In this document: piece by piece, positions 27,215 through 32,000 of the stretch
How positions within the stretch are numbered: position 1 is the first letter of the stretch
How the letters are laid out: each line of letters begins with the position of its first letter
Assembly (NCBI GenBank): GCA_000503915.1
Contig: CP006915.1
Coordinates: 300,001 to 332,000 of the forward strand
Reading direction: 5' to 3'
DNA: 32,000 nucleotides
Origin: Candidatus Saccharimonadota bacterium
GTDB lineage: Bacteria > Patescibacteriota > Saccharimonadia > Saccharimonadales > Saccharimonadaceae
Made by a program: the position numbers and the translations under genes
The notes under the pieces: model-generated
Seen by the model: only the letters and a program-made list of their open reading frames with translations
Told to the model about the DNA's origin: nothing
Databases searched by the model: none

Positions 27215-27367
27215 CGTTCAATAAAATACACAGTAATGCAAATCACACCTAGAGTGACCTGGCATCCGCTGGATGTGTGTTTTTGCGTTTTGCCCGATAA
27301 TGAGCAGGAGGTGTCTCATCGTCGATGGGTACTGTGGCAAACATAAAATAATCATATAGGGGAAATC

Positions 27368-29827
27368 ATGAACGGAATTCATGTGGTAAAGCGAGATGGC
27401 ACCCGCGAACCATTTGACGCCAACAAGATTAACCTGGCGCTGGTGAAAGCAAGTGAGGGCTTACCGGACCAGATATCTAAAGTAGTGCAGGTAGCGACCG
27501 AGCTCCAACTGACACTCTTTGATGGCATCACATCTGAGCAGCTTGACGAAGCAGTAATCCATACGGCACTGCAGAACGTCAAAGACGATCCAGACTTTGA
27601 CAAAGTCGCAGCGAGGCTGCTGCTCAAGAACATCTACAAGAACATCCTGGGTGATTTCGAAACCGACGCGCAACTAAAGAAACTTCACGCCAGCGCGTTT
27701 CCTAAATATATCAAGGACGCCGTTAAAAACGGTCTGCTAGACGAGCGCATGGGCGACGGCCGTTTCGACCTTAAGAGACTGGCAGCTGCACTCGAGCCTG
27801 CGCACGACGAACTCTTTAAATATATCGGTGTGGTAACCAATAAAAACCGCTACGCCCTGCGTAAAAACAGCGGCGCACCGATCGAAACACCACAGTTTAC
27901 CCACATGCGTATCGCTATGGGGCTTTCCTACAATGAAAAAGACCCGACCCAGGCAGCACTTGATTTCTACGAACACATGAGCCGACTCGAGTACGTCCCG
28001 GGCGGTTCGACTCGCGTGAACGCCGGTGGCGCTTTCCCGCAGCTTTCCAACTGCTTCCTGATGGAAGTACAAGACGACATGGAGTCGATCGCCAAGAGTA
28101 TTCGCGACACGATGTGGATCGCCAAAGGTACCGGTGGTATCGGCATTACCATGACCAAGCTTCGTGCGGCCGGCAGTCCGGTAAAGACGACCAACACTGA
28201 AAGTACCGGACCAATTCCATTTATGAAGATGATCGACACGGCACTCTTTGCCGTATCGCGAAAAGGCAAGAAAGCCGGCGCCGCGGCCATGTACATGGAG
28301 AACTGGCACCTCAACTTCCCGCAATTTCTCGACCTGCGTGTCAACTCTGGTGACCCATACCTCAGAACCCGTATCATGAACACGGCAGTTTATCTGAGCG
28401 ATGAATTCATGAACCGTGTCCAAAAAGGCCAAGACTGGTACTTGTTTGACCCGGCCGAAGTGGAAGACTTACCGGAACTCTACGGCGCTGATTTTAGTAA
28501 GCGTTACAACGAGTACGTCAAATTGGCGGAAAAAGGTGAGATTCGCGAATTTTCTAAAGTTCCCGCTCGCCAGCAGTTCAAGCAGATCTTGACGACGCTA
28601 CAGGCGACCGGACACCCGTGGCTGACGTGGAAGGACACTATCAACGTCCGTGCGCTCAACAACAACACCGGTACGATTCATTGTTCAAACCTCTGTACCG
28701 AGATTACTTTGCCGCAGGATGAAAAGAACGTGTCGGTCTGTAACCTGATTTCGATCAACTTGTCACGTCACCTGACGGAAGACAAGACGTGGGAATGGGA
28801 TAAGCTAGAAAAAAGTGTCCGCTCGGCTGTTCGCCAGCTCGACAACCTCTGTGACATTACCAACACGCCGATTCCAGAAGCGATGCATTCCAACCTGCAG
28901 AACCGTGCGATCGGCCTTGGCCTGATGGGCTTTACCGACGTAATCGAGAAATTGAGCCACAGCTACGAGTCTGAAGAGGCATATGACCTGATCGACCAGC
29001 TGGTGGAATTTATCAGCTACTACGCAATCGACGAATCAGCCGAGCTTGCCAAGCTTCGGGGCAGTTACCCACAATTTAAGGGCAGCGGCTGGAGCCAGGG
29101 CTTATTGCCGATTGACACTGTCGATGAACTCGGCAAGTCGCGTAAGCTCAAAGTGAACGTCAACAAAAAGACCCGTCTCGATTGGGAAGTCTTGCGTAAA
29201 AAAGCCACCAAGGGCATGCGCAACGCAACCTTGATGGCTATCGCACCGACCGCCAACATTGGCCTGATTGCTGGCACAACCCCTGGTCTTGACCCGCAGT
29301 TTGCGCAGATCTTCTCGCGTAGCACGCTGAGTGGTAAGTTCCTCGAAGTGAACCAAAATCTTGTTCGTGACTTAAAAGAGCTGGACCTTTGGGATCAAGT
29401 CAAAAACGAAGTGCTGGCTCGCCAAGGCGATATCCAGGATATCGAGGCAATCCCGCAGCACATCAAAGATGTCTACAAAACCAGTTTCCAGCTTAGTCCG
29501 TACGCTTTCATCGAAGTCGCGGCGCGCGCTCAGAAGTGGGTTGACCAAGCAATTTCTCGCAATATGTACCTTGAGACTCGCAACATCGATGACTACGTCG
29601 ATATTTACAGCGAAGCATGGAAGCGCGGCCTGAAGACTACCTACTACTGCCACGTCAAACCGCGTCACCAGGCTGAGCAAAGTACCACTCACGTCAACAA
29701 AACCGAAGAGCTAGCTAAAAAGAGCGGTGGCGCTCGTAAGTCAGGCTTCGGCTTCGCGAAAAAACAAACAACAGGGGTCCCCGAGAAACTTGTTTCACGG
29801 GGTATAGAAACGGAGGCAGGGGTATGA
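27368..29827 (+). CDS. nrdA: Ribonucleoside-diphosphate reductase alpha subunit (class I), one ATP-cone
   Basis: ATP-cone VVKRDGTREPFDANKI. Active-site motifs LSNCFL, CSNLCTEI and VCNLISINL. The TTYY pair lies near the C-terminus. AGGGGAAATC Shine-Dalgarno. No Cys occurs in the last ~58 aa of the annotated frame. Confidence 0.95.
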   Translation: MNGIHVVKRDGTREPFDANKINLALVKASEGLPDQISKVVQVATELQLTLFDGITSEQLDEAVIHTALQNVKDDPDFDKVAARLLLKNIYKNILGDFETDAQLKKLHASAFPKYIKDAVKNGLLDERMGDGRFDLKRLAAALEPAHDELFKYIGVVTNKNRYALRKNSGAPIETPQFTHMRIAMGLSYNEKDPTQAALDFYEHMSRLEYVPGGSTRVNAGGAFPQLSNCFLMEVQDDMESIAKSIRDTMWIAKGTGGIGITMTKLRAAGSPVKTTNTESTGPIPFMKMIDTALFAVSRKGKKAGAAAMYMENWHLNFPQFLDLRVNSGDPYLRTRIMNTAVYLSDEFMNRVQKGQDWYLFDPAEVEDLPELYGADFSKRYNEYVKLAEKGEIREFSKVPARQQFKQILTTLQATGHPWLTWKDTINVRALNNNTGTIHCSNLCTEITLPQDEKNVSVCNLISINLSRHLTEDKTWEWDKLEKSVRSAVRQLDNLCDITNTPIPEAMHSNLQNRAIGLGLMGFTDVIEKLSHSYESEEAYDLIDQLVEFISYYAIDESAELAKLRGSYPQFKGSGWSQGLLPIDTVDELGKSRKLKVNVNKKTRLDWEVLRKKATKGMRNATLMAIAPTANIGLIAGTTPGLDPQFAQIFSRSTLSGKFLEVNQNLVRDLKELDLWDQVKNEVLARQGDIQDIEAIPQHIKDVYKTSFQLSPYAFIEVAARAQKWVDQAISRNMYLETRNIDDYVDIYSEAWKRGLKTTYYCHVKPRHQAEQSTTHVNKTEELAKKSGGARKSGFGFAKKQTTGVPEKLVSRGIETEAGV

Positions 29828-29859
29828 ACCAGTGTATCTGCGGCTGTAGCTGCTGCTAA
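29824..29859 (+). CDS. Candidate 11-aa Cys-rich micro-ORF overlapping the nrdA stop (ATGA)
   Basis: atg aac cag tgt atc tgc ggc tgt agc tgc tgc taa translates to MNQCICGCSCC. Its ATG overlaps the nrdA TGA. The same (-1) frame is open back to 29740. Confidence 0.3.
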   Translation: MNQCICGCSCC

Positions 29860-29900
29860 AAACAAGAGCGAAAAAAAGTAACAAAATAGGGGAAACAACG

Positions 29901-30074
29901 ATGAACGCAAACGCAATCCTAACCGATGAGATGACACTGGAAGAAAAACTGGCCGCTATCGACCAAGCGATGGCCAATGCCCAGGCACAGGCCAACGAAG
30001 AGGCCGCAGCGAACGGCCAGATGGCCGCACCGCTAGACCCAGCAAGTCTAACGATCTGTGATGGGTGTGAGTGA
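29901..30074 (+). CDS. Candidate 57-aa protein ending in a CxxC motif
   Basis: AGGGGAAACAACG-ATG has the same Shine-Dalgarno type as nrdA. Sequence MNANAILTDEMTLEEKLAAIDQAMANAQAQANEEAAANGQMAAPLDPASLTICDGCE. It is below the ORF-track size cut-off. Confidence 0.45.
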   Translation: MNANAILTDEMTLEEKLAAIDQAMANAQAQANEEAAANGQMAAPLDPASLTICDGCE

Positions 30075-30175
30075 TGGGCGAGCAGCTATCGATTCGCGAA
30101 ATTGATGAACAACTGAAACAGTTCCTCGACGAACCGCTTGCAGAGATTGCACTTGCGGGAACCGTCGAACTGTAA
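30074..30175 (+). CDS. Candidate 33-aa acidic protein, translationally coupled (TGATG overlap)
   Basis: MGEQLSIREIDEQLKQFLDEPLAEIALAGTVEL. Its ATG overlaps the stop codon of the 57-aa ORF. Confidence 0.35.
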   Translation: MGEQLSIREIDEQLKQFLDEPLAEIALAGTVEL

Positions 30176-30205
30176 ACGGAAGAAAAGAGAAGCAAAGGAG
30201 GTGTA

Positions 30206-31267
30206 ATGTCAGGAATATTAGGTACCGGTATCCAGGACGGGCTGCTCTTAAAGCCGGTTCATTACCCGTGGGCAATGGAACTCTACGATCAGGCGGTCGC
30301 TAATACGTGGTTTCCAAATGAGATTCAGCTCGGTCAGGATCTTTCCGACTGGAAAAAGATGACCGATGAGGAGCGCCATGCACTGACCTACCTCATGAGC
30401 TACTTCAACCCGAACGAGCTGCTGGTCAATAAAGCTTTGGCCTTTGGCGTCTACCCTTACGTCAATGCTGCTGAGTGTCATCTCTATCTTGCGAAACAGA
30501 TGTGGGAAGAAGCCAATCACTGTATGAGCTTCGAGTACGTGCTCGAAACTTTCCCAATCGACCGCGACCAGGCCTACGCCGGCCATGTCGAAGTCGACAG
30601 CATGCGCATCAAGGAAGAGTTTGAGACAAAGTATATCAAGCGCATGACCGAAGACACGCTTGATATTACGACGACCGAGGGTAAAAAAGACTTTGTACGC
30701 AATCTCATCGCTTACAATATCATCCTTGAGGGTATCTGGTTCTACAGTGGCTTTATGGTGGCGCTTTCTTTCCGCCAGCGCAACCTGATGCGTAACTTCG
30801 GCAGCCTCATGGACTGGATTATTCGTGACGAGAGCCTCCACCTCAAGTTTGGCATCAACCTCATCCTGACTGTGCTGGAGGAAAACGAGGATCTACAGAC
30901 CGAGGAGTTTGCAAATGAAATCAAGCAAATGATCCTCGACGCTGTCGATATGGAAGAGCAGTACAACAAAGACCTACTGCCAAAGGGTATCCTCGGCCTG
31001 AACGCTGACTACGTCAACCAGTACGTCAAGTATCTGACTGACCGCCGTCTCGAAGAACTTGGCTTTGAACCACACTACAAGGTATCAAACCCCGCTAAGT
31101 GGATGGCCGCTGCCAACGACACGCTCGAGCTGGTCAACTTCTTTGAAAGTACCAACACCAGCTACGAAGTGAATGCAGGTAACAGCGCTTCAGCGATGAA
31201 GGGCGGCAAAAGCCCTAGCGCCGATCGCGGTGAAAATAACCCCGACGAGAGCATTCTCGATAAATAA
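30206..31267 (+). CDS. nrdB: Ribonucleotide reductase beta subunit, class Ic-type (R2c-like)
   Basis: Metal ligands read as E71, E102, H105, E175, E209, H212, with Phe109 at the radical-Tyr position. The spacing is identical to the Chlamydia trachomatis R2c pattern (E89, E120, H123, F127, E193, E227, H230). AAAGGAGGTG Shine-Dalgarno. Confidence 0.9.
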   Translation: MSGILGTGIQDGLLLKPVHYPWAMELYDQAVANTWFPNEIQLGQDLSDWKKMTDEERHALTYLMSYFNPNELLVNKALAFGVYPYVNAAECHLYLAKQMWEEANHCMSFEYVLETFPIDRDQAYAGHVEVDSMRIKEEFETKYIKRMTEDTLDITTTEGKKDFVRNLIAYNIILEGIWFYSGFMVALSFRQRNLMRNFGSLMDWIIRDESLHLKFGINLILTVLEENEDLQTEEFANEIKQMILDAVDMEEQYNKDLLPKGILGLNADYVNQYVKYLTDRRLEELGFEPHYKVSNPAKWMAAANDTLELVNFFESTNTSYEVNAGNSASAMKGGKSPSADRGENNPDESILDK

Positions 31268-31487: not shown

Positions 31488-32000
31488 ATGGTTCGTAAAG
31501 CCCGACGTGTATTGACACTACTTGGTCCCGCCTTCGTGGCGGCGGTGGCCTATGTTGATCCGGGCAATTTCGCGGCAAACTTCTCGGCAGGTGCCGAGTA
31601 CGGCTACGCACTTTTGTGGGTACTCGTCTTCGCCAACCTGATGGCCAGCCTGGTACAGTATCTTTCGGCCAAAGTCGGTCTGGTGACTGGCATGAGCTTA
31701 CCGGAAGTTATTGCTAAAAAACTTGGCCGTAAAAGCCGTATCGCCTATTGGTTACAGGCCGAAGCGGTCGCCATTTCGACCGACCTTGCCGAGGTGATCG
31801 GTGGGGCGATTGCGCTTAATATTCTCTTTGGTCTGCCACTACTTCTCGGCGCTGTTATCACTGGTCTGGTGTCGCTGCTGCTGCTCTTTATCTACACCAG
31901 GCGAGGGCAGCGGCTGTTTGAGCGGATTATCGTCGGACTACTACTGATCATTCCGCTCGGTTTTTTTGCCGGCCTTATCATCCAGCCGCCCGATGCGAGC
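31488..32000 (+). CDS. mntH: NRAMP-family divalent metal (Mn2+) transporter, 3'-partial (runs off right edge)
   Basis: MVRKARRVLTLLGPAFVAAVAYVDPGNFAAN contains the NRAMP DPGN motif, followed by consecutive TM segments. The frame is open to the window end. It is absent from the ORF track because no stop codon falls in the window. Confidence 0.85.
   Translation, partial: MVRKARRVLTLLGPAFVAAVAYVDPGNFAANFSAGAEYGYALLWVLVFANLMASLVQYLSAKVGLVTGMSLPEVIAKKLGRKSRIAYWLQAEAVAISTDLAEVIGGAIALNILFGLPLLLGAVITGLVSLLLLFIYTRRGQRLFERIIVGLLLIIPLGFFAGLIIQPPDAS

Follow-up and report, generated by a model that had tools for sequence, protein, structure and literature searches.

A probable free-standing C-terminal redox tail of a class I ribonucleotide reductase encoded between nrdA and nrdB in Saccharimonadales

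Introduction

In class I and class II ribonucleotide reductases (RNRs), a flexible C-terminal cysteine pair re-reduces the active site (PMC4520616), and a CXXC motif forms the C-terminus of most class I enzymes (PMC9669993). The C-terminal cysteine tail is treated as integral to every class I large subunit. Here we describe a 57-residue open reading frame (ORF), which we will call ORF1, located between nrdA and nrdB in a 32,000-nucleotide (nt) stretch of the genome of a Candidatus Saccharimonadota bacterium (contig CP006915.1, positions 300,001 to 332,000). This whole stretch is termed the window, and coordinates refer to it unless stated otherwise. ORF1 probably encodes a free-standing, trans-acting C-terminal redox tail of the class I large subunit, and a detached 57-residue tail departs from the usual picture. 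The original prediction had listed a detached R1 tail acting in trans among several hypotheses, and this one is supported by the homology of the tail motif, by strict co-occurrence with a tail-less NrdA, and by the pairing of the gene in phages with NrdH/glutaredoxin-like genes.

The only documented tail cysteines on a separate chain belong to the class II enzyme NrdJa/NrdJb (PMC4520616; PMC9669993). This split RNR occurs in Pseudomonas aeruginosa and other gamma-Proteobacteria, and its C-terminal cysteines are donated in trans by NrdJb. The NrdJb chain carries out thiol-disulfide exchange, attaches close to the C-terminus of NrdJa and is necessary in vivo (PMC4520616). Split domains are regarded as a peculiarity of class II in a 2022 survey of RNR extensions (PMC9669993). 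Among class I enzymes, the NrdA of Aeromonas phage Aeh1 is encoded as genes-in-pieces, having been cut by a homing-endonuclease insertion through the catalytic body (PMC3045599). In literature searches on Saccharibacteria with RNR and on class I enzymes without the cysteines, the detached-tail arrangement was not described. Since the searched literature holds no description and the precedent is limited to class II, we have filed the system as a class I (Ic-type) RNR with a detached tail.

The nrdA-nrdB locus and its comparison with known systems

The window belongs to an 845-kb single-contig genome with a completeness of 99.7%, and its closest protein relatives are Candidatus Saccharibacteria or Saccharimonadales. 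A spacer of 378 nt separates nrdA from nrdB and contains ORF1. The features needed first are as follows.

27368-29827, + strand: nrdA, class I RNR large subunit, 819 residues, with ATP-cone and catalytic barrel (Pfam PF03477, PF00317, PF02867; NCBIfam NF005101).
29886-29895, + strand: ATAGGGGAAA, presumed ribosome-binding region of ORF1 (identical decamer 5' of nrdA).
29901-30074, + strand: ORF1, 57-residue tail protein with an amphipathic helix, a variable linker and a C-terminal tail (conservation, profile, AlphaFold2 model).
30206-31267, + strand: nrdB, class Ic-like (R2c-type) small subunit (Pfam PF00268; structural match 1syy).

The decamer ATAGGGGAAA also stands before nrdA at 27348-27357, which agrees with the earlier description of an nrdA-type Shine-Dalgarno sequence for ORF1. 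Relatives show AAGGGTATAAGGGAA where the presumed ribosome-binding region of ORF1 sits. No terminator-like site has been found on the + strand between nrdA and nrdB. The layout given in the original prediction, a 378-nt spacer with micro-ORFs of 57 and 33 residues (ORF1 and ORF2) that overlap as TGATG, is correct in all its coordinates and sequence statements.

Compared with the covalent tail of class I NrdA (R1), ORF1 shares the terminal motif, the position of the pair one residue from the end, and the operon. The segment is presumed to be flexible, and its presumed role is likewise to re-reduce the active-site disulfide and to be reduced in turn by a redoxin. In contrast to the covalent tail, ORF1 is a separate cistron outside the NrdA polypeptide and has a conserved amphipathic helix, whereas fused tails have a low-complexity linker of 50-70 residues. 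ORF1 can also follow nrdB, or travel alone in phages. The likeness to NrdJa/NrdJb lies in a catalytic chain without tail cysteines and a separately translated chain of the same operon that carries them. However, NrdJa/NrdJb is a B12-dependent class II enzyme, while the local enzyme is class I with NrdB, and ORF1 consists of one helix plus the tail, with two cysteines only. With Aeh1 NrdA the locus shares a class I large subunit encoded in two pieces, which in Aeh1 must reassemble; at the local locus the detached part is the tail alone, and there is no mobile element.

ORF1 is a conserved gene

The ORF1 product (MNANAILTDEMTLEEKLAAIDQAMANAQAQANEEAAANGQMAAPLDPASLTICDGCE) ends in ...PLDPASLTICDGCE, with LTICDGCE as its last residues. 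In the comparison within the genus, the best DNA-level conservation of the spacer coincides exactly with ORF1. The frame is intact at 57 residues, with 65-89% amino acid identity, in the 16 genus relatives with an ORF1 match and in one sister genus examined, and it is also intact in further genera and families of the order. Non-synonymous divergence (pN) is 0.07-0.19 against a synonymous divergence (pS) of 0.6-0.8, where synonymous sites are near saturation; pN/pS is ~0.1 and the median dN/dS is 0.12. ORF1 is thus under strong purifying selection at the protein level and is a real gene.

The family is widespread and unannotated. In a collection of 5.8 billion proteins it forms 1078 clusters at 90% identity, 31-100 residues long, all unnamed or called "hypothetical" and none with a Pfam domain. 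A profile search of 1.84 billion representatives has yielded 118 clusters at 50% identity, of which 116 are small free-standing proteins of 33-144 residues; no long protein with the helix plus the tail was found among these 118. The C..C end is intact in 88 of the 118 representatives, and the remainder are mostly visibly truncated or frameshifted. Among the matches listed, all 120 ORF1 homologues end in C[DE][GS]C[EQ]. The proposed role would assign a function to this family of ~1100 clusters at 90% identity, and would add an example of essential micro-proteins missed by gene callers and annotation in bacteria of the candidate phyla radiation.

The consensus consists of a helix, D-x-MTLEEKLAAID-x-AM, a variable linker, and a tail, P-[LIV]-D-P-x5-C-[DE]-G-C-[EQ], followed by the stop codon. 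The invariant residues form two blocks, the first in the helix (I6, M11, L13, E15-L17, A19-I20, A23-M24 and N26-Q28) and the second in the tail (P44, D46, P47, C53 and C56). Among the 45,648 stop-to-stop frames of the genome, the ending C[DE][GSA]C[QE] occurs once, in ORF1. The AlphaFold2 model has a single helix at residues 13-38 with a predicted local distance difference test score (pLDDT) of 75-83, in line with the helical N-terminal part described earlier. The pLDDT falls to 63 for residues 41-50 and to 49 for residues 51-57, a low confidence that is compatible with disorder and is no proof of it. Pfam and NCBIfam scans of ORF1 gave no match even at an E-value of 10, and a comparison with Protein Data Bank (PDB) sequences returned designed coiled coils only.

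A second ORF1-like copy has been observed away from the nrd operon in three genomes (G726 contig C19, G003 contig C35 and G018 contig C19). These copies could come from a prophage or from strain heterogeneity in the assembly.

NrdA without a tail and the tail motif of ORF1

NrdA scores as a class I alpha subunit with the models NF005101 and TIGR02506, and it has its NrdB partner. It keeps the catalytic cysteines C229 (SNCF), C443 (NLCTE) and C458 (VCNL) and the tyrosine pair YY759-760, which we take to be the equivalents of Escherichia coli C225, C439, C462 and Y730-Y731. The tail pair of the E. coli class I large subunit is CXXXXC. The local NrdA has no C-terminal pair and no cysteine beyond residue 761, and a tail cysteine is found in none of 116 close NrdAs; the redox tail is missing from this NrdA, as the original prediction stated. 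The NF005101 match (1322 bits) covers profile positions 3-803 of 822 and leaves the last 19 unmatched. The NrdA of Saccharimonadales ends ~10 residues past the conserved GFGFAKK motif.

A word-index search for NrdA homologues returned close Saccharibacteria relatives only, and the fused forms were found by whole-genome profile searches. The ORF1 profile, built from 14 homologues and searched in 401 Patescibacteria genomes, matches three long frames (853-955 residues) through its last 18-24 positions. These three frames are the closest full-length NrdAs, 59-65% identical to the local one in the C-terminal domain, and the match lies at their extreme C-terminus: ...VPVDPQEKFLCESCQ, ...CPVDPQERLQCDSCQ and ...CPVDPQERLNCESCQ. 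Their tails are reached through a low-complexity linker of 50-70 residues after ...KVNK..GKKGFG. The motif of the nearest fused tails, ..DPxxxxxC[ED]xCQ, matches the last ~18 residues of ORF1. A terminal C-x-x-C pair is also present in 10 more distant Patescibacteria NrdAs, in eight of them as ..DPx(1-3)C[ED]xCQ, and divergent free-standing tail proteins end in ...IPTDPQDDFLCDSCQ and ...APIDPQDAFQCEGCQ. Since NrdA stops ~10 residues past GFGFAKK, the cut appears to lie at the start of the linker, with ORF1 carrying the tail.

Linkage of ORF1 to nrdA and evolution of the split

Among 151 genomes of the family, ORF1 is present in all 73 that have NrdA. In each of the 68 genomes with the spacing measured, it shares a contig with nrdA, at a distance of no more than 2.2 kb. 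It directly follows nrdA in 47 of them, and in the other 21 it stands 1.06-2.2 kb downstream, with room for nrdB between. The order nrdA-nrdB-ORF1 has been read directly in one genome (G088); otherwise the order is nrdA-ORF1-nrdB. There are four ORF1 matches without NrdA, two in fragmented or incomplete assemblies, one in a fragmented assembly that is 95% complete, and one a weak partial match. The same linkage holds at wider scope: in a sample of the order, the seven genomes that closely match the local NrdA are the seven with ORF1, and in a sample of the phylum, the eight such genomes in the family of the window are the eight with ORF1.

The position of ORF1 just behind nrdA in most genomes might suggest that the two are joined by splicing, frameshifting, read-through or trans-splicing of an intein remnant, so that the enzyme would not be truly split. 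The distance from the nrdA stop to ORF1 varies from 29 to 181 nt and falls in all three frames, so a conserved frameshift or read-through is excluded. Stop codons lie in every frame between the two genes, and ORF1 has its own start and ribosome-binding motif. The genomes with ORF1 further downstream, including the one with nrdB in between, and the phages that carry the homologue alone also argue against joining. Rfam searches (gathering thresholds on the whole window and E <= 1 on 29650-30300) revealed no RNA family in the spacer, be it an intron, a riboswitch or another, and neither an intein nor an endonuclease domain turned up. Joining in any of these forms is therefore extremely unlikely. 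The suggestion that ORF1 is the remnant of an intron or intein event is not supported by the same evidence, namely the lack of an Rfam match, the variable frame and the downstream position in 21 of 68 genomes.

A leader-plus-core peptide had also been considered, and it finds no support, as the operon has no maturase gene. As a precursor of a ribosomally synthesised and post-translationally modified peptide, ORF1 has been rejected: the operon consists of nrdA, nrdB and micro-ORFs only, and ORF1 is strictly tied to NrdA.

In a tree of the NrdA C-terminal domain (206 columns), the three fused relatives group with the split forms in a single clade. The split NrdAs are themselves not recovered as a clade, and one family of split forms (f59) falls outside the fused relatives and the other split forms. 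The monophyly of the split NrdAs is not rejected (approximately unbiased test, p-AU 0.128). A single fission of nrdA is therefore possible and not shown, and the 206-column tree cannot settle whether there were one or several.

Phage-borne tail genes

ORF1 homologues with 41-72% identity are encoded on 39 IMG/VR viral contigs. None of these contigs has nrdA or nrdB within 4 kb of the mini-gene, and PF02867, the RNR large-subunit domain, is absent from all five whole phage records, four of which are at least 99% complete and two of which have terminal repeats. Judged by reading their sequences, the neighbours of the mini-gene look like replication, RusA-like, exonuclease, amidase and holin-like genes.

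A glutaredoxin-fold gene comes after the mini-gene in 11 of the 39 contigs, and in seven of them it abuts the stop codon (start within 10 nt). In three of the abutting loci it encodes a WCAFC protein that is 55-57% identical to one of the two YruB-type redoxins of the bacterial genome. In the other four it encodes a CVQC protein, and the one that was scanned exceeds the curated NrdH cut-off (86.3 vs 85.75 bits). In a further four loci, a WCAFC protein comes after a small acidic ORF behind the mini-gene. NrdH is the dedicated reductant of class Ib RNR tails. A module of tail protein and NrdH without an RNR therefore argues that the mini-protein acts in trans on the host enzyme, with electrons from the redoxin.

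We consider it an even call whether Saccharibacteria phages use the tail protein, alone or with their own NrdH/glutaredoxin-like protein, to speed the tail-less RNR of the host. In this proposal, the tail protein would be the third subunit of a class I (Ic-type) RNR, a free electron shuttle that docks through the MTLEEKLAAID helix. Such genes would point to a new kind of phage auxiliary gene aimed at the supply of DNA precursors in the host.

The phage loci also bear on the suggestion that ORF1 is a small thiol-redox partner replacing NrdH or thioredoxin. NrdH and glutaredoxin-like reductants resemble ORF1 in being small CxxC proteins encoded with RNR genes, and they pass electrons to the enzyme; ORF1 differs in having no thioredoxin fold and in matching no redoxin family. 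Since the phage mini-gene sits beside NrdH, ORF1 is best seen as the partner of the redoxin, not its substitute. The bacterial genome, moreover, has redoxins and a reductase-like gene of its own, and the suggestion has been dropped. ORF1 has likewise been rejected as a thioredoxin-fold redoxin on its single-helix model, the CxxC at the extreme C-terminus and the lack of a family-model match.

ORF1 could instead be an NrdA-binding regulator, an inhibitor or activity switch like yeast Sml1, with a redoxin reducing the active site directly. The protein is small, helical and, by its model, partly disordered, the helix is better conserved than the tail linker, and such a protein could serve phages to relieve repression of the host RNR. 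A regulator is nevertheless unlikely, as both cysteines and the DP motif are invariant, the tail of ORF1 equals the fused NrdA tail, and the linkage to NrdH suits a redoxin substrate better.

Two further observations concern the phage loci. In four of them (L087 and L091-L093), an acidic ORF of 56-68 residues lies between the tail gene, whose end it overlaps, and the glutaredoxin-like gene; its position is that of ORF2 in the window, and the two have no significant similarity. Two other loci (L067 and L078) have a tandem pair of tail mini-genes. The second of the pair is divergent, has 46-55 residues and ends in ..P[IT]DPMD[ED]LQCDSCQ, nearer to the motif of fused NrdAs.

Proposed mechanism

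Homology, the gene neighbourhood and the precedent in class II suggest the following mechanism. The first event would have been a cut in nrdA, at the start of the low-complexity C-terminal linker, in an ancestor within Saccharimonadales. The tail would have persisted as its own cistron of the nrd operon and gained the N-terminal amphipathic helix. Each turnover would leave the active-site cysteines C229 and C458 of NrdA oxidised to a disulfide. The mini-protein would then dock onto NrdA by its most conserved part, the helix (MTLEEKLAAID), and its flexible C-x-x-C end would enter the active site and reduce the disulfide by thiol-disulfide exchange. A glutaredoxin-fold redoxin, such as the products of the two YruB-type genes, would re-reduce the tail, and a thioredoxin-reductase-like enzyme would recharge the redoxin.

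The genome encodes candidates for the last two steps. Two YruB-type glutaredoxin-like genes are located at genome positions ~233.0 kb (CPFC) and ~606.9 kb (WCAFC), and one thioredoxin-reductase-like gene lies at ~772.3-773.2 kb, with a score of 305 bits that is under the equivalog cut-off. The thioredoxin family PF00085 has not been found in the genome (99.7% complete).

A natural class I enzyme with a separate tail would show that the recharge step can pass to a diffusible partner. Because fused tails are disordered, structures give a poor view of how the tail enters the active site, and a detached tail would allow this step to be studied cleanly.

Several points weigh against this interpretation. 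The match between ORF1 and the fused tails is short, with per-genome E-values from 2e-4 to 1e-2, and the case for a tail is one of motif, position and context, not of alignment statistics. A chimeric query (the NrdA end plus the ORF1 tail) searched against the PDB gave alignments that did not extend into solved R1 tails, which are too divergent and short. Docking of the helix on NrdA is a guess. The tree topology described above belongs here as well, since the split forms were not recovered together. Finally, the C-terminal CxxC could bind a metal instead.

This last point leads to the small subunit. NrdB has a phenylalanine at the position of the radical tyrosine, and its best solved match is 1syy, the R2 protein of Chlamydia trachomatis (E-value 2e-70), with NrdB eeanHcmsFeY aligned to eeavHthtFlY of 1syy. 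ORF1 could accordingly be a metal-handling or assembly factor for a class Ic (Mn/Fe) small subunit, with the CxxC binding or delivering the metal. The R2c-like NrdB, the NRAMP-type frame at 31488 behind the operon, the ability of CxxC motifs to bind metals, and the poly-cysteine micro-ORF that adjoins ORF1 in this genus all speak for such a role. However, the motif and position of ORF1 are those of the covalent NrdA tail of the nearest relatives, and a metal factor would leave NrdA tail-less. The phages pair the gene with NrdH/glutaredoxin-like reductants, not with metal genes, and carry no NrdB. A metal factor is thus quite unlikely, and the detached redox tail is retained as the probable role of ORF1.

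ORF2 and the slot between ORF1 and nrdB

In the window, a second micro-ORF occupies this slot.

30074-30175, + strand: ORF2, acidic micro-ORF of 33 residues, MGEQLSIREIDEQLKQFLDEPLAEIALAGTVEL, net charge -6 (overlap with the ORF1 stop; genus homologues).

The ORF1 stop and the ORF2 start codon at 30074 overlap as TGATG, and 30 nt separate the end of ORF2 from the nrdB start. Homologues of ORF2 with 50-62% identity and the same overlap with the ORF1 stop have been found in four of the 16 genus relatives. The sequence is common to five species, at 33-36 residues, with G2, E3, Q4, L5, I7, E9 and D11 invariant, and the exact 33-residue product is present in public gene calls on five contigs. Pfam and NCBIfam scans of ORF2 gave nothing even at an E-value of 10, and its profile links it neither to the remaining slot ORFs of the genus nor to the small ORFs that come after the phage mini-gene.

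One or two + strand ORFs occupy the interval from ORF1 to nrdB in each of the 16 genus genomes. Their starts lie at the ORF1 stop or a few bases from it, and their ends range from 37 nt before the nrdB start to a short overlap with it. These slot ORFs have 33-145 residues, are nearly all acidic and belong to several mutually unrelated groups. The long ones exceed what dinucleotide shuffles give, with P <= 0.03 in all eight spacers of at least 250 nt, and P = 0.08 and 0.09 in two slightly shorter spacers. In genera other than that of the window, ORF1 lies just 10-30 nt from nrdB and no slot ORF stands between.

From the genus homologues, the filled slot and the long slot ORFs beyond chance, ORF2 is probably translated, fast-evolving and genus-specific. 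It is about an even call whether ORF2 has a specific function or serves as a translated spacer that keeps nrdB coupled, and its role may be no more than carrying ribosomes to nrdB. The two ORFs had been described as translationally coupled, and coupling agrees with the sequence, since most genus members conserve the overlap; the part of that claim that takes ORF2 for a gene is weaker.

Several observations tell against ORF2 as a functional gene. A 34-codon frame in a 143-nt stretch is within the length given by dinucleotide shuffles (P = 0.65), constraint is weak (pN/pS 0.27-0.59) and no homologue has been found beyond the genus. ORF2 could thus be no functional protein at all, either a chance frame or a translated spacer that lets ribosomes leaving ORF1 reach the nrdB start. 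The unrelated sequences that fill the slot in different species, their variable ends around the nrdB start, the lack of such an ORF in other genera and the lack of a family or profile match are all consistent with this. The sequence shared by five species with its invariant residues, the pN/pS values of 0.27-0.59, and the long slot ORFs that shuffles do not give point the other way. We place this reading a little short of an even chance.

The poly-cysteine micro-ORF and other features

Three further features lie near the operon, two at the nrdA end and one behind nrdB.

29824-29859, + strand: poly-cysteine micro-ORF MNQCICGCSCC (ATG overlaps the nrdA stop, ATGA).
29774-29812, + strand: strain-specific 39-nt in-frame insertion GVPEKLVSRGIET near the nrdA 3' end (comparison with near-identical NrdAs).
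31488-32000, + strand: open frame with an NRAMP-like DPGN motif, beginning 220 nt past nrdB and continuing beyond the window end.

The poly-cysteine ORF has 11 codons, its ATG overlaps the nrdA TGA, and GGAGG stands 7 nt upstream. In 12 of 17 loci of the genus and the sister genus there is a counterpart with the same ATGA overlap, the consensus MTDCTCxCxCC(K) and a length of up to 21 residues; it is absent from the other genera examined. Its cysteine codons are conserved and the intervening codons vary. The ORF is not part of the fused-tail linker of relatives, and the region shows no evident pairing with the ribosome-binding site of ORF1.

In mycobacteria, polycysteine small ORFs are cysteine-responsive attenuators (bioRxiv 10.1101/834739). 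The local ORF resembles them as a very short, cysteine-dominated ORF upstream of other cistrons. It differs in lying inside an operon, in having a Shine-Dalgarno sequence and in overlapping the nrdA stop, and it is not leaderless. It also does not precede cysteine-biosynthesis genes, and no attenuator structure has been seen.

Judged by its DPGN motif, the frame at 31488 is likely to encode a Mn2+ importer, which is worth noting beside a Mn/Fe-type RNR. The 39-nt insertion in nrdA is absent from NrdAs that are 98-100% identical (P0003-P0005, 806 residues), which read ...AKKQTTEAGV. Within the insertion is an imperfect palindrome of 11 bp, and a single similar hairpin, in which the changes compensate each other, is located at genome position 194239.

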